A stretch of 30,341 nt of DNA from Candidatus Thorarchaeota archaeon SMTZ1-45 (GTDB lineage Archaea; Asgardarchaeota; Thorarchaeia; Thorarchaeales; Thorarchaeaceae): NCBI GenBank assembly GCA_001563335.1, contig LRSL01000010.1, forward strand, positions 1 through 30,341, given 5' to 3'. The notes beneath the pieces are model-generated. The model saw only the letters and a list, made by a program, of their open reading frames with translations, was not told the origin of the DNA and searched no databases. The position numbers and the translations under genes were made by a program. The first letter of the stretch is position 1, and every line of letters begins with the position of its first letter. Positions 3,570-25,865 of the stretch are shown one piece after another.

Positions 3570-3773
3570 CTAGAAGTCATAAGCTTTCAGGGTCTTTCTT
3601 CCATTCCTCTTGCAGCGCTCTGCTGCGTCTGCTAGTGCATTGTGTACAGCTGTGTTGACTGCATCATAGGCGTCAGACCCCACCATCATTCCACTGTCTT
3701 TGGCGAAGTCTTGGATTGCTTTCTTAACGAAAAATGTGTACTTTGGAGCTTTAGCAGCTTTTTTCTTCGACAT
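3570..3773 (-). CDS. Histone-fold protein, short-alpha3 (face-to-face-like) type, with Lys-rich N-terminal tail
   Basis: 67 aa: alpha1 (VKKAIQDFAK), L1 (GMMVGSDA), long alpha2, and L2 motif GRKTLKAYDF (R-x-T-x4-D) ending the protein. GAGGT RBS upstream. Confidence 0.9.
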   Translation of the reverse strand: MSKKKAAKAPKYTFFVKKAIQDFAKDSGMMVGSDAYDAVNTAVHNALADAAERCKRNGRKTLKAYDF

Positions 3774-3976: not shown

Positions 3977-4375
3977 TCATTCTATGTTCTCCGGATAGAG
4001 TGCCTTACGCATATCTTCCAATATTGTAACACCTTGCGTGAACACGAATGCTATCTCCAAAGCCGCCACTACACCAAAGACCATCACAGAAACAACAATG
4101 TTTCCAAACCTGAATGGATTCATAAGATAGCCCATCACAAGAACGAAACCTATCATGCTGCAAGCAATCATGAATAATTTTCCACATCCTCGACTGAAAA
4201 GATACGTGAGTGCGATGAACGATAGGCCAACTGATATGCTAAGAGATGTACATACAACGTAACTAATCCAGATTGAAGAATCAAATGAGCTGGGAGAATA
4301 ACTGTAGAAGGCCGCGAATGTGAGGAAGAATCCTATCCCTGTCGTAATCAATAGACCCCATCTTATGCCTAGCAT
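3977..4375 (-). CDS. Four-TM hypothetical membrane protein
   Basis: 132-aa ORF, almost entirely hydrophobic helices. Confidence 0.75.
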   Translation of the reverse strand: MLGIRWGLLITTGIGFFLTFAAFYSYSPSSFDSSIWISYVVCTSLSISVGLSFIALTYLFSRGCGKLFMIACSMIGFVLVMGYLMNPFRFGNIVVSVMVFGVVAALEIAFVFTQGVTILEDMRKALYPENIE

Positions 4376-4449: not shown

Positions 4450-4496
4450 TTTACTGTAAAGCAATACATTTATATAAAAATGTACATTTTTACAGT
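4450..4496 (+). promoter_or_regulatory. TATA box with overlapping palindromic operator
   Basis: TTTATATA at 4469-4476; perfect 18-bp palindrome TAAAAATGTACATTTTTA at 4475-4492; flanking ACTGTAAA (4453-4460) and TTTACAGT (4489-4496). Confidence 0.7.
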
Positions 4497-4509
4497 TCGT
4501 GATAAGATA

Positions 4510-5169
4510 ATGAGCGACGATATTGATATTATTCGCAAGGAACTCGAAGAGGTTCGTAAACTGAAAGAGGAGCTGAAAAAAGAATTACATGATATGAAAG
4601 CTCTGAAGAGAGAGGAACAGAACAAAGGTCAGCGTCGTCAGATTCATAGAGACGAAGCACGACGACTCAGAGCGGAAGCAAGACGTGCTCGTGCATCAAG
4701 ACCACCAAAACCTCCACGTCCACCTAGAGTCACAAGGGTTGACCTAGATCTTGAGGACCTCACAGATTCTTTAGAAACCATGATGGATGGGCTTGGCCAC
4801 CAGATCGAGATGAGTCTAAGGAACATTGATGGTCTGAAAGTACCAGGAATAAGAATTCACAAGGACTATCGAAGGACTAAGAGGAGAAGAGACCAACGCC
4901 AAGAGATTGAGTCAATAGCTCCAGAACGCGTGGCTGCGATAGTTGCACCCCTTGGAAGTGAAGAACGGTTGAAGATTCTTGACTACCTCAAGACAGGTGG
5001 GAAGAGTTTCAATGACATCGAGAATTTCACGGGCAAGACAGGCAGTTCATTGACTCATCATCTGAATCCTCTGATTGAAGCTGGCTATGTGGTCAAGGGT
5101 GAAGTAAGAGGAACTTACTATGTCACAGTAGAAGGACGGTTGGCCTCAGTGGTTGACTCATCGGGTTGA
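4510..5169 (+). CDS. ArsR-type winged-HTH regulator with N-terminal coiled coil (probably the 5' part of a frameshifted gene running to 5461)
   Basis: LGSEERLKILDYL...SFNDI...SLTHHLNPLIEAGYV...RGTYYVT is an ArsR-like wHTH. Start moved to ATG 4510 because ATG 4480 lies inside the promoter palindrome. Confidence 0.85.
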   Translation: MSDDIDIIRKELEEVRKLKEELKKELHDMKALKREEQNKGQRRQIHRDEARRLRAEARRARASRPPKPPRPPRVTRVDLDLEDLTDSLETMMDGLGHQIEMSLRNIDGLKVPGIRIHKDYRRTKRRRDQRQEIESIAPERVAAIVAPLGSEERLKILDYLKTGGKSFNDIENFTGKTGSSLTHHLNPLIEAGYVVKGEVRGTYYVTVEGRLASVVDSSG

Positions 5170-5461
5170 GAGGCAGAAACAGAGGTCTGTTAGCAACGAT
5201 AACAGTGAATCATCGATCGATATTGAGTTTGATGATGGAGATGCAGAATCTGATGTTTTCGAGGATGAGGACACAGCTGAGGAGGCTGCTGAACACCTAG
5301 AAAGGCTCGCAGAAGAACTTGAGGAAGCGAGGGATGACCTTGAAGATCAACATGATGGGCTTGAGGAAGCTAGGGAGGATCTAGAATCTTCTCTTGCTGA
5401 GAAACTTGAGGATGAAGATGATGAGCCAGAAGATCTAGACGAACTTGATTGGGATGATTAG
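5153..5461 (+). CDS. Highly acidic coiled-coil segment, likely the frameshifted C-terminal tail of the wHTH regulator
   Basis: D/E-rich frame with heptad Leu repeats, ending LDWDD. It has only a TTG start overlapping the upstream ORF, and the frame is open upstream (QWLTHRVER). Confidence 0.65.
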   Translation: MTHRVERQKQRSVSNDNSESSIDIEFDDGDAESDVFEDEDTAEEAAEHLERLAEELEEARDDLEDQHDGLEEAREDLESSLAEKLEDEDDEPEDLDELDWDD

Positions 5462-5468
5462 GAGGTAA

Positions 5469-6245
5469 ATGATAATGATACGACTAACACCTGATACTAA
5501 TGTAATGGTAACAACACAAGAGATAGACATTATCTCACATGAGAAAGCCTATGTGAGAATGAAGTCCGGCTGCGTGTGGGTCTACCTTCTCGAGGATGGA
5601 GTCCGCGTTGGTGTCGCTTTCGCTGGTCCATCGCGCTTTGCAGTTGATGCAATCGCAGAGACTGACATGGGTGCAATGGGCGAGTCAATAACCGGGGACC
5701 TCTCTGGTATACAGCTCTACATAGGAATTTCTTCTTTGGAGAACATCTCTAAGAGTGCTGAAAGTTTAGAGATTCAAAAGCAGGGTTTCAAAGACACTGA
5801 AACATTTGTGAAGAAGATTGAAGATGAAATCCAGAAGCACATGAATGGTGAGAACAAGAAGACAAAGATTGAGAGTAGGAAGGACTCCAAGATATTCTTC
5901 GGAACTGACTCGAAGGACAAGCAACTGCTTCTAGTCTTGAGTGAAGAAAAGGAGCTTGTTTTTACATATGATAAGGCTGTTTTTGTCTTGGGTGATGATA
6001 ACATGGTTTCAGTCAGCAAATCTGGAGTTGTAGTGTCAAACCGAGATGGAAAACAGATCATCGTTGGAAAGAATGGAATAGTTGGACTTGACAACTTCTT
6101 AGACATAGGTCCAATAATCACAGATTCTGTGACTAGTGCAATGAAGGGTCTAAAGGGTCTCAAGTCATTGAAATCCATGAAACGCTCGATGAGAGGATTT
6201 CCATACGCTTGGGACAACGTTGACGATTTTGACTGGGAGGACTGA
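5469..6245 (+). CDS. Hypothetical protein, likely co-transcribed with the wHTH regulator
   Basis: 258-aa ORF with GGAGGT RBS at 5461-5466 (true start may be ATG 5475); beta-rich body; C-terminal KGLKGLKSLKS and DDFDWED. Confidence 0.85.
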   Translation: MIMIRLTPDTNVMVTTQEIDIISHEKAYVRMKSGCVWVYLLEDGVRVGVAFAGPSRFAVDAIAETDMGAMGESITGDLSGIQLYIGISSLENISKSAESLEIQKQGFKDTETFVKKIEDEIQKHMNGENKKTKIESRKDSKIFFGTDSKDKQLLLVLSEEKELVFTYDKAVFVLGDDNMVSVSKSGVVVSNRDGKQIIVGKNGIVGLDNFLDIGPIITDSVTSAMKGLKGLKSLKSMKRSMRGFPYAWDNVDDFDWED

Positions 6246-6423: not shown

Positions 6424-8244
6424 CTATTTCTGTATAGGCACTCTAATAGATCGTGGTCTGATTTGAAGTTCGTACAGTGAATGATACTTGCCCTGTTGTT
6501 CCATTAACTCCGCATGTTTTCCAGATTCAACTATTTTCCCATTTTCTAGTACAACAATTCTGTCTGCATTAACAATGGTTGAGAGTCTGTGAGCAATTAC
6601 GATCGAGGTTCGATTCTCTAGAAGGACTTTCATTCCTCTCTGGATTGCATGCTCCGTATAGATGTCAACTGAACTTGTAGCTTCATCAAGAATCAGGATT
6701 TTAGGATCTGCAAGCAGGGCTCTAGCAAAGCTGACTAATTGTCGCTCACCCTCTGAGAGTCTACTCCCTCTCTCACCCACCTCTGTGTCAAGTCCGTTCT
6801 CGAGACCCTCTATTATTCTTCTAGCACCTATTGCATCAAGCGCCGCAATAATATCTTCTTCAGTTGCCTCCTGACAGCCATAGCTTATGTTTTCCCTCAC
6901 AGTCCCCATGAATAGAAATGCTTCCTGAAGCACGAGTCCAATCCTTGAATGAAGCGAATTCTGTGTCACTGTCCTAATATCGATACCATCAATCTCGATT
7001 GAGCCATCAAGTACATCATAGAACCTGTTCAAGAGGTTCACAATTGTAGTCTTGCCTGCACCTGTGTTTCCAACAATTGCTACTGTTTCTCCAGTTTTAA
7101 TCTCCAAGTTGAAGTTCTCCAACACAAGAAGACCCTCAACATATCCAAAAGTAACATTGTTGAAACGTACATGTCCCTTTATCTCAAGCATGACCTGAGC
7201 ATCTGGATGGTCTTGAACTGCTGACTCAGAATCGATTACAGAAAAGACCCTCTCTCCGCCAGCAAAAGCACTCTGAACAGATGTATAGAAGTTAGCAATT
7301 ATGAGAATCGGACGGAAAAAGCTATCACTGAACTGAACAAACATGACTATAGTTCCAAGAGTGACTACAGGAACCAGACTTGGATCTAGCATGAGCATTC
7401 CACCAAAGAGAAGAATCACTGTTGTTCCGAGTCCGCTGATAAAACGAATAACAGGGAAGAAAGAAGCTTGCGCTTTCCCTGCATCAATATTTGACTGATA
7501 ATCTGCCTCGTTTAACTCTGCAAATATCTCAGCACTGATTCTCTCTCTTGCAAAACTCTTGGTCACCTTTGCTCCCGAGATACTCTCGGCTAAGTTGGAT
7601 GTTACATTTGATATTGTCTTTCGTGTCCGTCTGTATGCTTCGCGGAGTAGCTTCCTGAAGTATATTGTAGTGAGGAGCAGTATTGGAACAATCGAAAGTG
7701 AAATGAGAGCAAGTCGCCAATCAGCCGAGAACATAGCAGCACCAATTGCAAAGACAATGAAAACCTGAGCGAACGCATTGATTAGCTCCCCTCCAAGAAG
7801 CTCACTCATCCTATCCACATCATTTGTCAGCCTTGAGATAATCCTGCCACTTGAGGAATGATCATGGAACTCTTCAGACAACTCCTGTACATGGCTGTAG
7901 AGCTCTTGCCTAATGTCAAAGATGGCTCTCTGCCCCATGAGTGCCATTAGATAGCCACTTCCGTAATTTGTGATCCATGACATGATTTGAAGAAACACAT
8001 ACAGAAGTGCTGTGAAGATAATTGGCTGGATAATCTCATTCACAAAGTCAACATCAATTGCCTGTCGCAAAACAAAAGGAGTCCATACCCCAAGTACGAT
8101 GCCAATCGCAGTCAGAACCACAACAGCAGCAAACAACTTCCTATATGCAAACAGGTACTTGATCATTCGTATGAGCAGCTCCGAGTCGGTGTACTCGTAT
8201 GTTCTTGCGTCTGGGTCGTCTGCACTATCCAGAGAACTACTCAC
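6424..8244 (-). CDS. ABC exporter, fused TMD-NBD half transporter (TM288-like subunit)
   Basis: TMD followed by Walker A GNTGAGKT, deviant signature LSEGE, Walker B ILILDE and H-switch IAHR. Confidence 0.95.
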   Translation of the reverse strand: MSSSLDSADDPDARTYEYTDSELLIRMIKYLFAYRKLFAAVVVLTAIGIVLGVWTPFVLRQAIDVDFVNEIIQPIIFTALLYVFLQIMSWITNYGSGYLMALMGQRAIFDIRQELYSHVQELSEEFHDHSSSGRIISRLTNDVDRMSELLGGELINAFAQVFIVFAIGAAMFSADWRLALISLSIVPILLLTTIYFRKLLREAYRRTRKTISNVTSNLAESISGAKVTKSFARERISAEIFAELNEADYQSNIDAGKAQASFFPVIRFISGLGTTVILLFGGMLMLDPSLVPVVTLGTIVMFVQFSDSFFRPILIIANFYTSVQSAFAGGERVFSVIDSESAVQDHPDAQVMLEIKGHVRFNNVTFGYVEGLLVLENFNLEIKTGETVAIVGNTGAGKTTIVNLLNRFYDVLDGSIEIDGIDIRTVTQNSLHSRIGLVLQEAFLFMGTVRENISYGCQEATEEDIIAALDAIGARRIIEGLENGLDTEVGERGSRLSEGERQLVSFARALLADPKILILDEATSSVDIYTEHAIQRGMKVLLENRTSIVIAHRLSTIVNADRIVVLENGKIVESGKHAELMEQQGKYHSLYELQIRPRSIRVPIQK

Positions 8245-10171
8245 TGATCTCCCCTCCTTGAGTCTTTGATATTGTGGATGTTGAAATGGTATCAGATTTG
8301 ACGCTTGCAGCCAGTTCCAATTCAGTCAGAGTTTGGTGAATATTATGATAAAGCCCCTTCTCAGCGATCAAGCTCTCATGAGAACCAATTTCAACGATTT
8401 TTCCACGTTCCATCATTACAATTAGATCTGCATTTCTTACTGTACTCAAGCGATGAGTGATTATGAAGGTGGTTCGTCCTTTCATTAAGTTCTCCAGTGC
8501 TTGTTGAATCAGCATTTCTGTCCTCGCATCAACTGAGCTAGTAGAATCATCAAGTATCAGAATCCGTGGGTCAGCGAGTAGAGCTCTGGCAATCGCAATC
8601 CTTTGTTTTTGTCCTCCACTGAGTGTGACACCTCGCTCACCCACTTCAGAGTCATATCCATCTTCAAGTGTCACAATAAAGTCATGTATCATAGCTGCTT
8701 TCGCAGCATCCATGACCTCCTCAATTGATGCATCTGGTCGTGCAAAAGCTATATTGTTCCTCAAAGATGCTGAGAAGAGAAATGGGTCTTGATGCACTAT
8801 TCCAATTCGTTTTCGTAATTCACTTATCGCACAGAGCCGAATATCCACACCATCGATGCAGAGTGTACCCGGGGATTGAACCCTGATTTTTTCACCGTTT
8901 TTCTCAATATGACCATTTTCCACTTTTATTTCTGAACCATCGATAATAACACAACCAGTCTCATCAACACGATAGACCTTTCCGTTATGCCTGACCGTAT
9001 AGTCTTGGTCCACATCATAGAATCTTGGAATTAGATTGACTAGACTGGTTTTCCCTGAACCAGTCCCTCCAAGTAATGCTACCACTTGTCCCGGTTTCAC
9101 ATGAAGCGAAATATCCTGAAGAATATGTTTCTCTCCCCTATAGCTGAAATAGACATTATCAAAATCAATAGCTCCCAAGAAGTCAGAAACGTCGACAGGT
9201 TCCTCTGGGTCCATCACTTCCTCAATAGAGTCCAAGATGTAGAAGGTGCGATCTCCCGCGGCTGCTGCACGTTGATACATACCCACTCCCCAACTGAGGA
9301 ACCGTGCTGGGAGCAAGAGCATTCCCACTAGGGTCACAAAACCCACAAACTCACCAAGCGTCAGAATATCATTTAAGATTGACACTCCCCCAATGTATAT
9401 CAACCCTCCAATAGCGAGTCCAAATATTGCGGGGAGCATTGGTTGGAAGAGTGATTGAAGTCTGCTGGCCTCAACCCTCAAGTCAAGAAATCCACGATTC
9501 TCTTTTTCTACTCTTTTGGCTTCCCTCTCCTCCGACGCATATGTTCTAACGACCTTATGTCCGACTACATTCTCCGCAAGTACTGAGCTGAGGACTCCAT
9601 ACTGTTTCCGTGCGGCATAAAATACAGGTCGTACCTTTCGAGCAAAAGAGTATATGAAAATGGCAATCACTGGCAATAGTAGAAGCATGTAGTAAGTAAG
9701 ATCCGAATTCACATTCCACATCACAATGTATGTACCAATGAGCTGTACTGTCCCGATGAATATCACACGATAGCCCCAAAAGAGAAACTCTCTCATCGTG
9801 GTGACATCAGTCGTCGCACGGGCGAGAAGCTGACCTGTTTCATTCTCATCGTAAAAGGCCAAGTCTTTCTCCATCAAACTCTCGTAGAGCTCTTCACGCA
9901 TTGTGTAGATTACCCATTGCGAAGATATTGCTGCTCCATAGCGCCCAATCATGTCAAAGATTGCATAAAGAAGACCCAGTCCAACATAGAGTACTGTGTA
10001 TGGAAAGAGTAAATCAAGTTGCTCACCAAGTAGTACCTCATCGACTATTTCGACAACTACGAGTGGGGTTAGAAGATTGAACATGGTACCAATTGCTGCT
10101 GATATGAGAAAGCCAAAGAATAGACCCTTACGTCTGAGAGAATATCCTATGAGCCTTCTTATATTACCCAT
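8237..10171 (-). CDS. ABC exporter, fused TMD-NBD half transporter (TM287-like subunit)
   Basis: Walker A GGTGSGKT, signature LSGGQ, degenerate Walker B ILILDD; overlaps its partner gene by 8 nt. Confidence 0.95.
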   Translation of the reverse strand: MGNIRRLIGYSLRRKGLFFGFLISAAIGTMFNLLTPLVVVEIVDEVLLGEQLDLLFPYTVLYVGLGLLYAIFDMIGRYGAAISSQWVIYTMREELYESLMEKDLAFYDENETGQLLARATTDVTTMREFLFWGYRVIFIGTVQLIGTYIVMWNVNSDLTYYMLLLLPVIAIFIYSFARKVRPVFYAARKQYGVLSSVLAENVVGHKVVRTYASEEREAKRVEKENRGFLDLRVEASRLQSLFQPMLPAIFGLAIGGLIYIGGVSILNDILTLGEFVGFVTLVGMLLLPARFLSWGVGMYQRAAAAGDRTFYILDSIEEVMDPEEPVDVSDFLGAIDFDNVYFSYRGEKHILQDISLHVKPGQVVALLGGTGSGKTSLVNLIPRFYDVDQDYTVRHNGKVYRVDETGCVIIDGSEIKVENGHIEKNGEKIRVQSPGTLCIDGVDIRLCAISELRKRIGIVHQDPFLFSASLRNNIAFARPDASIEEVMDAAKAAMIHDFIVTLEDGYDSEVGERGVTLSGGQKQRIAIARALLADPRILILDDSTSSVDARTEMLIQQALENLMKGRTTFIITHRLSTVRNADLIVMMERGKIVEIGSHESLIAEKGLYHNIHQTLTELELAASVKSDTISTSTISKTQGGEISE

Positions 10172-20111: not shown

Positions 20112-23100
20112 CTATCCTTCTTCTTCTACTGTTTCAGGAGCCCTGATTATATCAGTCGCAAACGGGGACTCATCTGTCGTGATGAGTAATTGATTCTCCA
20201 AAGCCCTCATGATTGCTTGATAGACCCGCCCCTCTTCGAGACCACAAGCTGAAATCTCTGAAGCGAGTTCTTCGAGTTTGAATTCTTCTCCTTGCTTACG
20301 AGCTATCCGTTCATCAGCGCAGGTGGATGTTGGGAATTTCTTTGATTCGTCTAACTTGTAGGTCCTTAAGAGAGCTCCATCTAGGATCTCGTCGAATAGT
20401 GAATTAAACCGCTTAGTTGTATGATGATTAAGGACAACGACCGGTACATCTTCCATCGTTTCATCAAAGATGAATCCAACAGTCTTGGCAAACTTAATCA
20501 TTTTCTCTCGTTGCTCAGGTGAAGGATTGCCAGTTGTGATGAATGCGCAAATTAGCTTGTTCGTGGACACCACCCTGACGATGTCCGAGATTGGAATCAA
20601 CCCCCATTCTTCGGATGTTGTTTCAATATCAAACTCGCCCCGAAAACTAGTGATTGCGGTGATGAATGCAGAAATCACAGCTTCCTCGAGACCCTCTCTT
20701 AGAATCTTAGAATAGACTGGTAATCCACTGTCTTTATGAAGCACAATAACTCCGAGAAGACTTTTGACATCATCAAAACGTTTCTTAATTGCGAGGGTGA
20801 TTTTGTTCTGTTTGATTCGTCTTTTTCTTGCTGTTCTTCTATAAGCAAGACCAACTACTACCATGCCAAGTCCTATGAATACCCAGTAGTAGTTACGCAC
20901 AGTCATGACAATCATTGTGCCAACATCTCTTCCTGGCTGCAGCAGCATTACAAGTGGTTCATTTAATATGAAATTGGTTGCATCAAAGGAGATCACAACA
21001 TAGTATGTACCGTCTGCTGAGGGCATGTCAAGTGCTGCTATGTACACTCCAGGCGTGGCTGACTCTGGCATCACTATGTCTTGCTCATAGATTCGCACTC
21101 CATCAGTTCTACGGATGTTATAGGCCACAGTGGCTCCAGTTACTGGAGCCCCTGTGTCAGCCTCTGTAATTCTTACCATGAGTGTCGTAATGAGTCCCTC
21201 TGACCCCCTAAGACCTTGAAGGACCTCAATAGTTACTGGGACCTCAGCAACACTGAACCTAAGCCTGAATGTTGCAGTTTCAAATCCTGTCTTCTCAAAG
21301 GTTAGGAGTACACTATAGTCTCCAAGAGCTTGTGGGGTCATGTTAACAGAATATTCTCCAGAGCCAAGTTCAGTGAATGTCACCCAATCAGCCCCCTCAC
21401 CTAAGGGTACCACTGTTGCTTCATAGATATTGCTACTATTTGACTCGAACATGTAACTGAAATTGAACAAGTATGACCTACCAATAAGTAGGTCATCAAA
21501 GGGACTCGAACCTGATATGGCTGTGTCAATTTCCTGCACCTGAAACAAGAACTGTTTGGTTGAAGTATAGTGATCAGTCTTGTTTGCTGTGATTGTTAGC
21601 GACCAGGTACCTAATGCCTGTCCTCTAATTGTGATCAAGTAATAGCCAGTATATGACTCGACAGCTATAACTAGTCCTGGATCTTGTGTAAGTACTGATA
21701 CATTAGCTCCAACTATATTGACAGAGGGGGTCACATCAGCTCGATAATAATAAACTATGAGAGTGTATGGTTCCTCGAACTCAACAAGTGCTGAGGAAAC
21801 ATCCCCTTCAAACACAATTCTTGTTTCTATCTGGGTCACTATCAATGTGAAGGCTGCACTTGAACTCTGATAGTTGTCTGCGGAACTCCGAAAGAGAACA
21901 TTGAAAGTGCCTATTGCCAGTGGGGTCAATGTGAAATTATACAATCCGGTCCCAGGTCCCACTAAAACAACTTCCGAAATGATTAACCCACTTGGAGGAT
22001 TGGTCACCGTGAAGTTGGCATTTTCAATTGGATTAAGACTGTCATCCTGTAAATGTAGCTGAACAGTGAAGTTTTGGTCCAATGCAATACTTGCACTTGA
22101 TGGTAATGATGTAAGAATTGTTGGTATGCCAGTCGCAGTTAGAGTGAACGTTGCATATTTCGTCTTGTGGTTTAAGATGCTGGCACTGATTACAATCGAG
22201 AATGCCCCTGCTGCTATGGGTGTAAGTGTAATCTGATAGTATCCATCAACAATATGAGAAAAGCCACCGTGGGTCAGTCCAGTAGCTGGAGTTATCGTCA
22301 CGACTTGTAGATCGGCACCCACAAGACCTGTTCCGGTGCTGTTTCTATATTCAACGACCAGAATATAGCTGCTACCAAACAAAACGACATCTACAGTGCC
22401 ATTAAGAAGCTGGAGTTCGCTTTCTGTTTCGCCAATAATCAGAGTAAAGGCATCAGAAGTATTGTAATGATACTCCTTGGAAAGTGTTATCGTTATCCCA
22501 TAGATTGCTGATATATTGCACTTGATATCTACAGAGTACAAACCGGTGTCATTATCAATGAAATTGGTCCACAAAAGACCTTCTTGAGGTCCTGTGAATA
22601 TGATTGTGGGAAAGGCCCCAGCTACCCCGCTCCCATTAAGGAGTTGGTAACTCATCTGTACTGAGAAGATCTCATTGAGACCAATTTCAATTGGAATCAA
22701 TCCCGCATTTAATATCTCTAGAGTGGTTTGTATAGCTGTCACTGATAGTGTGAATCTCATAATCGAACTCTGATAATTGACAGCTGAAGCTCTGAAGAGC
22801 AGATTGTAGACAGAAATGTCTGATGATCTTAGAGTAATGTTGTACAATCCACTTCCAATTGGTGTTGCTCCTGAAATGAAGATTCCACTTGGTGGGTCTA
22901 GCACAGATATAGTAGCGGAATTAATTTGATTCAGACTCTCATCTTGGAACAATAGCTGAAGTGTGAACGTCTGATTAACTGCGACTGTGGCACTCGGTGG
23001 AATAGCTGTCAAAATAGTTGGGATTACAACACCAGTCAGAGTAAAGGTCGCATATTGAGTCTCATGATTGAAGAGACTTGCGCGGATTACTATAGAGTAT

Positions 23101-25664
23101 GTACCAGTGGTAGTTGGGGTAAAAGTAATCTCGTAATAGCCTTCAGTTATTAGAATGAAACTGCCATTATCTAGTCCAGTTTGAGGGGTTATGGATACAA
23201 TTTCTAGATTTGCTCCAGAAAGACCTTGTCCGGTGCTATTTCTATATTCAACCACCAATCGATAGCTGTTTCCATATTGAATAACATCTGCAGTACCATT
23301 CAGAAGTTCAAGCTCGGTTCCAGTTTCACTAATTATGAGTGTAAAGGAGTCGGAAGAGTTGTAATGATATGGCTTTGATAGGGTTATTGTGACCTCGTAG
23401 GATGTGGCTATGTCACAAATGATATCCACTGAATAATGTCCATTATTATTGTCAACGAAATTAGTCCACGAAAGACCTCCACCCGGTCCTGTAAATGTAA
23501 CTATTGGCTGAGCCCCTGGAATTCCTGTCCCATTAAGGAACTCATAGTCAATTTGTGCTGTGAATACTTCATTTAGTCCATTCTCAATTGGGATTGACCC
23601 TGCATTTAGGATTTCTATTGAAGTTTCATACATTGAAATAACTGTGAACTGAGTTGAAACTGCGTCGAAAAATGGTCTCGTGGCAGTGACTATGACATTA
23701 AATTGTCCTCCTCCAAGTAACGATGTATCAAAGTCCGCCTCCCACCAATTTTTTGCATAGTTTTGTGTGAATGAGATAATTGTGCTTGACCAATTTGCTT
23801 CGATTTTGACACTATCATCCAAAAGATACTCGTTTGTATCAGCATCCCTGTACGTGATGAGATTTGAGATAGTCAGACCATAGTCCGTTTCGATAAGTGG
23901 GTAAGTTGCAACGATTGATGCTGAGTGGTAGAGATCGAAAGTGACTGATTCAAAGGCTATTTCCGTTCCATTAGTCCAGAGAACATCAATCGACCATTCC
24001 CCTGCAGTAGTGTTTGAGCTTCCAAAAGTCCATGAGGAGCTTGTAGCAGCACCTCCTACCAAAATAATCGAATCAATAATCCAAATGGCTTCATCTGGCA
24101 ATATCCATGTAATGTTAACAGGGTCACCTCCAGCTGGTGTTACACTTGCAGTCCCTATCTCTACCTGAACTCGTGTATCATTCCCAGGCCTGAATAGTGA
24201 ATTCTCTGACCAACCACCAATGCTCTGGTCGAACACTTGGACGGAGATGTTTTTTGCATAATTCCAGCTATTGAGATTAATCTCCCACCAACCACTTCGA
24301 CTCAATTCACTTGTTGGTATATGTAGTACGCCTGAAGTTATGACACAAGAATCTGTGATATTATTCATTAGTGGGTCCCAGACAGTTGTATTCTCCCAAT
24401 CCTTAGGATAGAAGATATCAATTGTTGAATCTGAATAACCACTTGGCTGTGTGATATACGTATAGAAGGTAAGATCTGAATTCTGACCTGATGTAATTGA
24501 ATATGCTACTCCCTTCTTACTGAGATCTGTTGTCCATGATGAATTGATATAACGCTGAAACAATGTAGTGACCGAGTAGGTAAATGTTACAGTTGCATTC
24601 GCTGTGATTTGATACTCCAGTGGAGATGCCGTCCAAAAGTCTGGATTGGAGATTGTAGCAGTTCCTGTTCCAATTCCCGAAACTGGAGCTGAAAAAGAGC
24701 CTGCATGAAAAGTTAAATCGACATCATCAAATCCCAGGGACGTGAGGCTCTTAAGTTCAATATTATCAATATAGATGGTCACATTTTCCGCATTTTCATG
24801 ACCATCTGGCTCCCCAAGTGGATCATCATCATAGTCGGTGTTTACGTATATCCACATATCCGCCCAACCAATCCAAAGACCAACATATATTGAGAAAGTA
24901 CTCAACCCTGGATCAACTGTAAAATCATGGCTAACCGAATACCATGTTTCTCTGGAGTTAAGTTCCTGCAGAGGATAGTACCATGCTTCACTAGCTAGCT
25001 GCCAATAGACACCAAAATCGCCTTGAAACGTGTTATCTCCCTCTGGGTCAAGTGGACCAGTTACATAGCGAAAATCGAACTCCATTCTGAAGCTCACTGA
25101 TTCAGGCGTGTTTGTAATTACTTGTTCCCATGCTGCTTCGGAGTCTTCACTATGAAGATAAGAACCTCCCAGTCCAGGATTGTAATTGCCAATGTTCTGG
25201 CATACAATGTATTCACCTGTAGAATTATAGGAGTTAATCTGTGTATTAGAACCACCATCATTGCTGAAAGGAATCCATGGGTCTGAACCATCATCAAATG
25301 TTCCATTTACAGAATACAATCGCTCGAGGTTTGCAATTTCAATTTCTGTACTGTTCACAAACCAGCCATTTGCTCCATCAATTGTGATATTTCCAGTAGT
25401 GTTAGTTCCAGTGTCGGATAATCCTTTGCTTATTTCTGTTGTCTGATATGCTGACTGCAACATCGATACAGGTTCAATAACCCCTTGTTGTTGAATCTGC
25501 GAAATTATGAATCCTCCGACATTCACCTCGTTAATGTTTTGAATTATTGTTGCTTCTCTATTATTATAATCCTCATGATGGCTTCTAGGAGTTGAAAAAG
25601 GTATTACTGTCAAAATAAGTGAAAAACCAATCAGGCATATAATCACATAGCGTTTAACATTCAT
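20112..25664 (-). CDS. Giant single-pass surface protein: Ig-like repeats, TM helix, cytoplasmic longin-like plus winged-helix-like domain
   Basis: About 1850 aa: N-terminal hydrophobic signal, ~100-aa Thr/Ser-rich beta repeats, TM YWVFIGLGMVVVGLAY plus basic stop-transfer, ~240-aa cytoplasmic domain. GAGGTGA RBS favours ATG 25664 over GTG 25673. Confidence 0.92.
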   Translation of the reverse strand: MNVKRYVIICLIGFSLILTVIPFSTPRSHHEDYNNREATIIQNINEVNVGGFIISQIQQQGVIEPVSMLQSAYQTTEISKGLSDTGTNTTGNITIDGANGWFVNSTEIEIANLERLYSVNGTFDDGSDPWIPFSNDGGSNTQINSYNSTGEYIVCQNIGNYNPGLGGSYLHSEDSEAAWEQVITNTPESVSFRMEFDFRYVTGPLDPEGDNTFQGDFGVYWQLASEAWYYPLQELNSRETWYSVSHDFTVDPGLSTFSIYVGLWIGWADMWIYVNTDYDDDPLGEPDGHENAENVTIYIDNIELKSLTSLGFDDVDLTFHAGSFSAPVSGIGTGTATISNPDFWTASPLEYQITANATVTFTYSVTTLFQRYINSSWTTDLSKKGVAYSITSGQNSDLTFYTYITQPSGYSDSTIDIFYPKDWENTTVWDPLMNNITDSCVITSGVLHIPTSELSRSGWWEINLNSWNYAKNISVQVFDQSIGGWSENSLFRPGNDTRVQVEIGTASVTPAGGDPVNITWILPDEAIWIIDSIILVGGAATSSSWTFGSSNTTAGEWSIDVLWTNGTEIAFESVTFDLYHSASIVATYPLIETDYGLTISNLITYRDADTNEYLLDDSVKIEANWSSTIISFTQNYAKNWWEADFDTSLLGGGQFNVIVTATRPFFDAVSTQFTVISMYETSIEILNAGSIPIENGLNEVFTAQIDYEFLNGTGIPGAQPIVTFTGPGGGLSWTNFVDNNNGHYSVDIICDIATSYEVTITLSKPYHYNSSDSFTLIISETGTELELLNGTADVIQYGNSYRLVVEYRNSTGQGLSGANLEIVSITPQTGLDNGSFILITEGYYEITFTPTTTGTYSIVIRASLFNHETQYATFTLTGVVIPTILTAIPPSATVAVNQTFTLQLLFQDESLNQINSATISVLDPPSGIFISGATPIGSGLYNITLRSSDISVYNLLFRASAVNYQSSIMRFTLSVTAIQTTLEILNAGLIPIEIGLNEIFSVQMSYQLLNGSGVAGAFPTIIFTGPQEGLLWTNFIDNDTGLYSVDIKCNISAIYGITITLSKEYHYNTSDAFTLIIGETESELQLLNGTVDVVLFGSSYILVVEYRNSTGTGLVGADLQVVTITPATGLTHGGFSHIVDGYYQITLTPIAAGAFSIVISASILNHKTKYATFTLTATGIPTILTSLPSSASIALDQNFTVQLHLQDDSLNPIENANFTVTNPPSGLIISEVVLVGPGTGLYNFTLTPLAIGTFNVLFRSSADNYQSSSAAFTLIVTQIETRIVFEGDVSSALVEFEEPYTLIVYYYRADVTPSVNIVGANVSVLTQDPGLVIAVESYTGYYLITIRGQALGTWSLTITANKTDHYTSTKQFLFQVQEIDTAISGSSPFDDLLIGRSYLFNFSYMFESNSSNIYEATVVPLGEGADWVTFTELGSGEYSVNMTPQALGDYSVLLTFEKTGFETATFRLRFSVAEVPVTIEVLQGLRGSEGLITTLMVRITEADTGAPVTGATVAYNIRRTDGVRIYEQDIVMPESATPGVYIAALDMPSADGTYYVVISFDATNFILNEPLVMLLQPGRDVGTMIVMTVRNYYWVFIGLGMVVVGLAYRRTARKRRIKQNKITLAIKKRFDDVKSLLGVIVLHKDSGLPVYSKILREGLEEAVISAFITAITSFRGEFDIETTSEEWGLIPISDIVRVVSTNKLICAFITTGNPSPEQREKMIKFAKTVGFIFDETMEDVPVVVLNHHTTKRFNSLFDEILDGALLRTYKLDESKKFPTSTCADERIARKQGEEFKLEELASEISACGLEEGRVYQAIMRALENQLLITTDESPFATDIIRAPETVEEEG
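21825..23624 (-). repeat. Tandem ~900-bp (~300-aa) intragenic duplication
   Basis: EILNAGSIPIENGLNEVF vs EILNAGLIPIEIGLNEIF are offset by 897 nt; the NYQSS copies are offset by 903 nt; VVEYRNSTG and YATFTLT recur. Confidence 0.9.
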
Positions 25665-25865
25665 CTCGGTCACCTCAAGTCTTAGGATTAGAGTTCAACG
25701 AGCCCCTTGGCTTATAGCTCCAATTTTGAATGCTGGGATTCCACTCAGTTCAGAAACCTTTTTTCTTGAGGTTATTATTATTCCTCGTTTTACCTGCTTT
25801 CGATTAATCGAATAGATTGAATAATTACACGCTAATACTTATTCCAAAGAATGGATCAAAATCAA

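Follow-up and report, generated by a model that had tools for sequence, protein, structure and literature searches.

Why should two adjacent genes of an Asgard archaeon, coding for dissimilar proteins, end in nearly the same acidic peptide with a tryptophan close to its terminus? The question is raised by a 30,341-nucleotide (nt) stretch of DNA from Candidatus Thorarchaeota archaeon SMTZ1-45, analysed here as a whole and referred to as the window; close homologs of its proteins carry the public labels Thorarchaeota or Sifarchaeia (Asgard archaea). The upstream of the two frames reads ...EDLDELDWDD, with the Trp codon at 5450-5452 and the stop codon at 5459-5461, so that the ELDWDD end and its stop span 5441-5461. 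The next open reading frame (ORF), 5469/5475..6245, reads ...NVDDFDWED, with the Trp codon at 6234-6236 and the stop at 6243-6245, the VDDFDWED end and stop spanning 6219-6245. Both tails were read in the window translation where the original prediction had placed them. That prediction took them for the ends of two adjacent gene products sharing a linear motif of the eukaryotic WASP type, by which both might dock on one partner. By their sequences, the two tails are a single motif, hydrophobic-[DE]-x-hydrophobic-D-W-x-[DE]-COOH. The upstream tail belongs to an ArsR-type regulator, the downstream one to a 256-residue protein encoded at 5475..6245 and called p256 below, and a third copy ends a membrane protein encoded elsewhere in the genome.

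The motif is more strongly conserved than the sequences around it. Positions are counted from the C-terminus, the last residue being -1 and the Trp -3, and tail counts refer to the 120 homologs listed as matches for each family. All 120 p256 homologs end in DW-x-[DE], preceded by Phe (FDW-x-[DE]); the variants are DWED (65), DWKD (33), DWDD (13), DWKE (4), DWTD (3), DWPD (1) and DWSD (1). Among the regulator homologs, 116 of 120 end in [LMIF]DW-x-[DEN], and of the four exceptions, one record has R in place of W and three are truncated or frameshifted. The mean frequency of the top residue in p256 is 0.908 over the last nine residues versus 0.787 over the whole protein; the corresponding values for the regulator are 0.819 over the last nine residues and 0.527 over the preceding acidic stretch, showing a constant terminal Trp behind a drifting acidic stretch. 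Column by column, the top-residue frequencies are V 1.00, D 0.97, D 0.93, F 1.00, D 1.00, W 1.00, x 0.54 and D 0.97 in p256, and D 0.93, L 0.76, D 0.99, x 0.54, L 0.81, D 1.00, W 0.99, x 0.44 and D 0.91 in the regulator. Across the three carrier families, the hydrophobic residue at -5, D at -4, W at -3 and D/E at -1 are kept, and position -2 is free (E, K, D, T, P, S). Certain regulator tails (NVDDFDWND, DDVDDFDWED) match the p256 tail, which itself holds two tandem Trp-acidic elements, AWDNV..FDWED. No covariation beyond relatedness was seen between position -2 of the regulator and p256 tails when the pair loci were compared by eye. A cause at the DNA level, such as an overlapping gene or a ribosome-binding site, was rejected, the p256 end having no same-strand gene downstream and the two coding stretches not being duplicates of one another.

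The motif is also rare. The window genome is 88% complete (119 contigs, 3.54 Mb), and a crude proteome of 3712 ORFs was called on it, in which further carriers may be missing. Within this proteome, DW[DE]D-COOH is found in the two window ORFs alone. Acidic ends are frequent, 69 ORFs having at least five D/E among the last ten residues, and of these only the two window ORFs end in DWxD. The looser pattern W-x-[DE]-COOH stands at background level: 7 ORFs end in it, and moving the pattern 1-29 residues inward gives counts of 2-11. The genome was also scanned in six frames, and among 102,240 stop-to-stop segments at least 20 residues long, the 8-residue motif was encountered three times, in the two window tails and in one 33-residue segment of non-genic look. 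Our own estimate from residue frequencies, made without a dedicated tool, puts the chance expectation of the full motif at about 0.005 per 3700 proteins. When E was permitted at the second motif position, the scan gave a third genuine gene end at C108:3-224. Two further W-x-[DE]-COOH candidates were discarded as carriers: a 60-residue ORF at C117, whose end is not conserved and whose homologs are internal parts of ORFs of 200-340 residues, and a HEAT-repeat protein at C95, in which ..IW.W.. is kept just in the 7-9 closest relatives and the ends are variable.

The third gene end, ...RDFEAMDWED, opens contig C108 and is unlinked to the gene pair. Contig C8 closes with the 5' part of the gene, and this cut by a contig end is why the gene is absent from the crude proteome. 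The encoded protein of ~365 residues is composed of an acidic N-terminus, an RRRRSRNRRRR stretch, five transmembrane hairpin repeats (~ten helices) and the tail QWRKYRDFEAMDWED, and no Pfam match was found for it. Both its ends should be cytoplasmic, since an even number of helices is predicted and positive charges flank the membrane. Homologs are present in 64 of 86 genomes of the family. All 29 orthologous ORFs from genera g1, g6, g9 and g16 end in [ML]DW-x-D (genus codes such as g1, genome codes such as G000 and the family labels are those of this analysis), and 109 of the 120 listed homologs, 47-92% identical, end in [LMFIV]DW-x-[DEN]. Of the 11 exceptions, nine seem truncated or changed ahead of the motif, and the other two end in MEWDD and LDRDD. 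Among 18 loci of other genera, 11 have a canonical [LMF]DW (for example IDDMDWKDEE and ELDELDWEE); in two others Phe replaces Trp, another two show LAWE[DE], and the rest are without the motif. The conserved end residues are common to unrelated carriers, a winged helix-turn-helix (wHTH) regulator, a β-rich protein and a membrane protein, and in the first two they sit in tails of low predicted local distance difference test (pLDDT) score. The conserved flanks, the rarity among acidic tails and the third unrelated carrier together support the proposal that this is a common C-terminal linear motif, selected as such.

The regulator was recognized from the ORF 4480..5169, which matches the Pfam family HTH_5 (ArsR-type wHTH; E 3.5e-7, 30.4 bits, cut-off 22). 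Its homologs score 29.6-34.6 bits with HTH_5 and bear the public names ArsR/SmtB; the NCBIfam model HTH_metalloreg gave 27.7 bits against a cut-off of 55. The start at 4480 is that of the ORF lister, and most homologs begin at the MSDD codon at 4510. The ORF stops 15 codons past the wing and is followed by the ORF 5153..5461, which is in the next frame and has no ATG. Comparison with related sequences indicates that this second ORF is the acidic C-terminal tail of the ArsR-type regulator gene and no separate gene. In 18 of 18 close related loci, both parts form a single ORF of ~290-370 residues, in which ...VTVEGRLAYRLAQWLTHRVEKQRER... and, after it, an acidic stretch precede a final ...DLD[ED]LDW[DEK]D. 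DNA alignment with four orthologous loci revealed an 11-column gap in the window alone. The ortholog P0234 (332 residues) is 100% identical to the window regulator over residues 1-222 and 94% identical over the tail, and reads GRLAYRLAQWLTHRVE across the deletion site. In the public run X1, a contig (depth 7.5) carries 11 additional letters after position 5144; the contig of run X2 ends at 5146, with loose letters compatible with the same insertion, and the deleted form occurs in none of the contigs of the two runs. No RNA run holding the locus was listed among the public runs. Given the single-ORF relatives, P0234 and the run contigs, the split is an assembly error or a minor variant by all sequences compared, and the natural product is one protein. 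Of the 'two adjacent gene products' in the original prediction, both tails are therefore real, but the first is the tail of an ArsR-type regulator and no independent small acidic protein.

In the AlphaFold2 (AF2) model of P0234, a long helix (residues 5-71) runs into an Arg-rich, Pro-rich stretch; next come another helix, modelled with low confidence, the basic residues KRRR, and the wHTH (residues 134-215, pLDDT >90) with its C-terminal helix. A disordered VDIEFDD segment leads from there to an acidic helix (residues 269-318, pLDDT 85-96) and a free tail. The last 14 residues of the regulator have pLDDT values of ~45-56 and are undocked in the monomer model. In the charge profile of P0234, two 20-residue blocks reach +8 and +7, and each block over the last 90 residues lies between -7 and -9. 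Just upstream of the regulator start is an inverted repeat whose arms (4453-4474 and 4475-4496) are 22 nt long and 77% complementary, with a perfect inner palindrome of 11 nt. In 18 related loci belonging to the genus, the ACTGTA, TATA-like and TGTACAGT elements occupy the corresponding position. The position and conservation of the repeat suggest that it is probably the regulator's own operator and promoter, and binding of the regulator at this site is predicted as likely.

The partner protein, p256, matches no family of Pfam or NCBIfam. A Pfam scan of 68 members of its family (E up to 1) gave nothing bar scattered single matches, and a Protein Atlas search with p256 yielded no usable match and no stored model. 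The AF2 model, built from 68 sequences (pLDDT 81.7, predicted template modelling score 0.74), contains an all-β N-terminal domain (residues 1-95) with near-invariant G46, G51, D58, I60, E62, T63, A67 and G69. Beyond this domain follow a helix, β-hairpin repeats (residues 139-203, or to 205), a Lys-rich (GLK)n helix (residues 211-224) and a disordered end (residues 229-256, pLDDT <50). With the whole model, Foldseek returned no match in the PDB at E 0.001 or better, and the best hits of the VIA wide fold search (Z 6.3, OspA-type sheets and VgrG-type spikes) were within the noise of that tool. A search of 1.84 billion cluster representatives gave 89 members of the family at E <=0.001. Of 400 sampled genomes of the phylum, 151 encode a member, as do 76 of the 85 genomes in the window's own family, mostly in single copy. 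Relatives in other Asgard families are ~200-240 residues long and are without the C-terminal extension, and the Lys-rich helix co-occurs with the acidic Trp tail in the same lineages. Among 75 full-length representatives of the family, 27 have [DE]W in the last 25 residues versus 4.8% of the genome's ORFs. In two other Asgard families (L090:1618-3648 and L091:1564-3516, both on the minus strand), the p256 N-terminal domain heads a protein of 650-676 residues, which adjoins a short regulator-like ORF and in whose remainder Pfam finds no domains.

The regulator and p256 genes form a nearly obligatory pair. At the loci examined, which include other Asgard families, a regulator-like ORF lies directly upstream and on the same strand in 90 of 92 p256-family ORFs, at a distance of -64 to +19 nt and often with a 3- or 6-nt overlap. 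Of the two unpaired cases, one match lies where its contig begins and the other is a fragment of 73 residues. Pairing holds also for two paralogs (L088 and L089). In the window genome itself, tblastn detected no paralog of the regulator or of p256.

What could such a peptide do? It is conserved, disordered and free, it combines a fixed aromatic anchor with hydrophobic positions and an acidic frame, and it recurs on three unrelated carriers; these properties favour a single reader site. From the sequence pattern we consider it reasonably probable that the tail motif is a C-terminal docking peptide read by one binding site, and the free tails in the monomer models would fit peptide binding in trans. 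The Trp and the two hydrophobic residues would be received in a pocket, with the acidic residues and the terminal carboxylate against a basic rim. One site would read all three tails, and the carriers would compete for it or be gathered there. The reader could be located inside the system, in the conserved N-terminal β domain of p256 or in a basic stretch of either the regulator or the membrane protein. Because only three carriers were found, two of which are an obligatory pair, and because the regulator tail is acidic and hydrophobic wherever the pair exists, an internal reader seems likelier than a general hub. The tails of the membrane protein, p256 and the regulator would exchange on the reader site, and this exchange would couple a membrane or ligand signal to regulator activity at the palindromic operator, by partner switching or membrane sequestration. 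What we infer in this scheme is that the motif binds at all, which receptor it has, how the membrane protein is oriented and how the regulation works. Docking on one partner, as originally proposed, is thus favoured by the evidence for a shared motif, but the WASP/Arp2/3 version of it finds no support.

More tentatively, Thorarchaeota might possess a eukaryote-style linear-motif network in which a predicted reader domain ties the membrane protein, the regulator and its operon partner into a signalling circuit. A PCI-domain protein ending ...DPGAWDIDLDEE may be a further member of it. If true, the system would provide an archaeal precedent for the eukaryotic W-acidic and acidic-aromatic docking motifs of trafficking, the cytoskeleton and transcription activation. 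The sharing of docking sites through short linear motifs is a hallmark of eukaryotic regulation and is little documented in archaea; here a conserved C-terminal tag is placed on a regulator, its obligatory partner and a membrane protein within the archaeal group closest to eukaryotes. Once its reader is named, the gene pair, which several Asgard families have conserved, would have a first function assigned to it. Among titles and abstract openings, no publication was found on tryptophan-acidic C-terminal motifs of Asgard or other archaea, on ArsR regulators of Thorarchaeota or on the pair.

The distribution of the tails informs this reading. All three proteins carry the motif in the window's genus. 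The sister genera mostly retain it in p256 and the membrane protein, and their regulators have a plainer acidic tail, often with an aromatic residue at the end (...EEDW, ...EEDVW, ...EEEF). Other Asgard families have a short acidic regulator tail with hydrophobic residues (IDIDIE, LDDFPEEEE) and p256 relatives without such a tail. The regulator tail is thus acidic with hydrophobic residues throughout, also where the Trp is absent. Over 49 genomes, the tails of p256 and the membrane protein are both present in 32, only that of p256 in 7, neither in 10 and only that of the membrane protein in 0; the tail-less set consists of genera g2, g5, g7, g8, g10 and g13 plus one g6 genome. This co-distribution is suggestive of a shared constraint. 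In two of the seven genomes with the p256 tail only (G317 and G337), the membrane-protein homolog ends in a Phe variant (FDFTD, LDFKD).

Several points weigh against a docking peptide with one reader. The co-distribution is statistically not established: the gene tree of the p256 core has long branches and poor resolution, and the tail state must change 4 times on it, with only 1 of these changes forced by well-supported branches. Independent pairs number just 1 on supported branches and 4 on all branches, so that a sign test cannot reach significance. Five of the seven genomes with the p256 tail only are without a membrane-protein match (G354, 71% complete; G343, 83%; G325, 92%; G336, 97%; G385, 90%), which may be due to incompleteness or divergence. 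In the family's other genera, p256 keeps the motif while the regulator is without the full motif, and the regulator tail may be a late convergence with a different role. The tails are heterogeneous across the wider p256 family: at least four His/Cys in the last 25 residues are found in 16 of the 75 full-length representatives, as against 3.7% of the genome's ORFs. Finally, AF2 leaves the p256 tail undocked on its own core, which argues weakly against self-reading by p256.

Among the alternatives, electrostatic self-regulation survives best, although we regard it as unlikely. The acidic tails would mimic nucleic acid or a ligand and fold back on basic segments of their own proteins, with the Trp as an aromatic anchor; the targets would be the Arg-rich helix, KRRR stretch and wHTH of the regulator, the (GLK)n helix of p256 and the RRRRSRNRRRR juxtamembrane stretch of the membrane protein. 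The shared motif would then represent a common physical solution and not a common receptor. Acidic tails act in this manner in bacterial SSB, phage T7 gp2.5, HMGB1 and the C-terminal domain of Hfq. Each carrier indeed pairs a strongly basic segment with an acidic tail, as seen in the charge profile of P0234, the Lys-rich helix of p256 and the Arg-rich N-terminus of the membrane protein, and the confidently modelled acidic helix of the regulator would be compatible with packing on the N-terminal helix. Autoinhibition by acidic tails is the subject of articles on Hfq (PMC5606850) and on D/E repeats (PMC10250230). Electrostatics alone, however, needs no invariant Trp at -3, no fixed D at -4 and no hydrophobic residues at -5 and -8; an agreement over eight residues among three unrelated proteins exceeds the specificity of the known D/E tails, and the last residues are undocked in both monomer models.

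A C-degron or processing signal is very unlikely. A protease or unfoldase adaptor reading ...DW-x-D-COOH would co-regulate the abundance of the three proteins, and regulator-partner pairs are often under proteolytic control. The carriers do include a regulator and its partner, and the motif lies at the extreme C-terminus, the last residue being D/E in 0.91-0.97 of the sequences. Several genera nevertheless have 1-3 extra acidic residues after the motif (DWDDDE, DWEDEE), so that the distance to the carboxylate is not strict, and no protease gene is linked to the pair. We know of no archaeal C-degron of the DW-x-D kind.

Highly improbable is a eukaryote-like W-acidic element, of the WASP or kinesin-light-chain cargo type, docking on an actin/Arp-like machinery or on a tetratricopeptide repeat (TPR) protein. 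LDWD and MDWE fit the [LM][DE]W[DE] pattern, the tandem AWDNV..FDWED of p256 is like the bipartite cargo motifs, and the genome encodes one actin homolog (441 bits) and 43 matches to TPR_12, none of them linked to the carriers. The analogy with WASP and Arp2/3 drawn by the original prediction was nonetheless not sustained. No WH2, connector or other actin-related domain was detected by Pfam in the window proteins, their intact homologs or any carrier (E up to 0.05-0.1); none of the carriers, a DNA-binding regulator, its β-rich partner and a polytopic membrane protein, looks like a cytoskeletal factor, and only three were found in the genome. ARPC4 (PF05856) had no match in the 88%-complete genome, in a weak search whose control matched in no genome.

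Metal-binding tails are an extremely doubtful explanation. On this account, p256 would be accessory to an ArsR/SmtB-type metalloregulator and its Asp-rich Trp tail a hard-cation version of His/Cys tails. Many p256 relatives do have His/Cys-rich ends (P0121-P0208; loci L053, L059 and L074), such as ...HGHHDHHGHGSHHGGHCGGH, ...CCDEDDEPDHT and ...HCCH, which hint at metal binding in some lineages; these include the 16 of 75 representatives counted above, the regulator is of the ArsR/SmtB class, and ATP-binding cassette (ABC) exporters adjoin the pair in 27 of 41 loci. Chelation, however, leaves the invariant Trp, the fixed hydrophobic positions and the presence of the same tail on a membrane protein and a regulator unexplained, and the regulator does not reach the NCBIfam cut-off for metalloregulators. 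Convergence by chance, driven by acidic composition and with a functionless Trp, would accord with the background level of W-x-[DE]-COOH and the abundance of acidic tails (69 of 3712 ORFs), but its probability is negligible, the Trp being kept in 120, 116 and 109 of the 120 homologs listed while neighbouring acidic residues vary, and the full motif occurring in no other real gene of the genome.

The positions of the features discussed are listed in Table 1, together with the genes on either side. A homolog of the histone-fold-like gene is found beside the regulator-p256 pair in 22 of 41 loci; the loci with ABC exporter homologs beside the pair all lie inside the window's own family. Between the histone-fold gene and the regulator is a hydrophobic 132-residue ORF (3977-4375, minus strand) that has no homolog in 41 related loci. 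Read from coordinates, the spacer around it appears shorter in relatives, and the ORF is an insertion or spurious. The window also holds a very large ORF of 1853 residues at 20112-25673 on the minus strand.

Table 1. Coordinates of the regulator-p256 locus and flanking genes in the window
Feature	Position	Strand	Remarks
Histone-fold-like protein, 67 aa, basic	3570..3773	-	CBFD_NFYB_HMF, E 0.0073, below cut-off; divergent from regulator
Inverted repeat	4453..4496	+	ACTGTA...TACAGT half-sites flank an A/T-rich TATA-like box, just upstream of regulator start
Regulator, 5' part	4510..5144	+	Frame 1: N-terminal long helix, basic Pro-rich segment, wHTH
Deletion site	5144..5145	+	11 nt missing relative to orthologs; frame shift splits regulator gene
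Regulator, 3' part	5145..5461	+	Frame 2: C-terminal helix end of wHTH module, VDIEFDD-like segment, acidic helix, motif
Regulator terminal motif, L-D-E-L-D-W-D-D	5435-5458	+	Stop 5459-5461
p256	5475..6245 (lister 5469)	+	Terminal motif V-D-D-F-D-W-E-D at 6219-6242, then stop
Two MsbA-like ABC exporter genes	6424..10171	-	Convergent with p256; NCBIfam matches below equivalog cut-offs

Other gene ends of the genome also carry conserved aromatic residues. The PCI-domain protein mentioned above (C13:94336-95169, minus strand, genome G000) is 277 residues long with a borderline domain match (Pfam 22.4 bits, cut-off 22). Its end, ...RDLEDPGAWDIDFDDE, keeps DPGAWD[IMLV].. in 29 of 29 orthologs and resembles the first half of the p256 tail (AWDNVDD), and its gene is present in 82 of 86 family genomes, including genera without the main motif. 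An enzyme of the Oxidored_FMN family (C33:38399-39445, plus strand) ends in ..EI[IV]PWK[DE] in 19 of 19 orthologs in the genus. A 365-residue membrane protein (C16:10256-11353, minus strand) ends in ..EP[IV]W-x-D in 26 of 26 orthologs, down to 34% identity. Acidic-aromatic ends are found as well on a 750-residue protein of contig C69 (..LLEDFGE) and on a 103-residue ORF of contig C18 (..ALEFEDD).

Comparison with known systems places the motif near several classes of short acidic peptides. Like the acidic region of WASP and WAVE, it is an acidic C-terminus with a conserved Trp 2-3 residues from the end. Upstream of it, however, there is no WH2 or connector but a wHTH and an acidic helix, or β repeats and a Lys-rich helix, and at the level of sequence the likeness covers ~4 residues and is without homology. 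The W-acidic motifs of kinesin light chain cargoes are likewise acidic peptides with an essential Trp after a hydrophobic residue, borne by unrelated proteins that include the cytosolic tail of a membrane protein. To their pattern, [LM][DE]W[DE], the regulator (LDWD) and the membrane protein (MDWE/LDWD) conform, whereas p256 has F (FDWE). The tails described here differ also in their free C-terminus, their conserved terminal D/E, an archaeal host without known kinesin, and carriers that comprise a transcription regulator, the partner from its operon and a polytopic membrane protein. The existence of tryptophan-acidic cargo determinants is confirmed by PMC5450233.

Comparable with the regulator tail are the SSB tip and the tail of T7 gp2.5, acidic disordered tails with an aromatic or hydrophobic anchor on a DNA-binding protein. 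Tails of this type can bind both their own DNA-binding surface and partner proteins, and the regulator ends of sister genera (...EEDW, ...EEEF) are closely alike to this class. The SSB tip is present on one protein with many partners, whereas here there are several carriers and, in the window's genus, a Trp at -3. The EEVD-COOH of Hsp70 and Hsp90 is also an acidic C-terminal peptide with a terminal Asp common to several proteins; it is read by the TPR carboxylate clamp, and a TPR-type receptor may act here too, but the sequence is different, no chaperone is involved and an aromatic anchor is present here.

As for the regulator as a whole, it shares with ArsR/SmtB regulators the HTH_5 domain and a palindromic site over its own promoter, and departs from them in its long N-terminal helix, basic Pro-rich linkers, acidic helix and tail of ~100 residues, and obligatory β-rich partner gene. 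Mlc held by PtsG provides a parallel in working only, a soluble regulator system joined to a membrane protein by a short cytosolic element; here the regulator and the membrane protein bear the same peptide, so that they would compete for the reader. In working principle, the motif is nearest to the SSB tip, EEVD and W-acidic classes, and it is a member of none of them by descent. What appears new is the motif sequence and its set of carriers, which would extend an otherwise known class of C-terminal docking motif to a regulator, its operon partner and a membrane protein of an Asgard archaeon.

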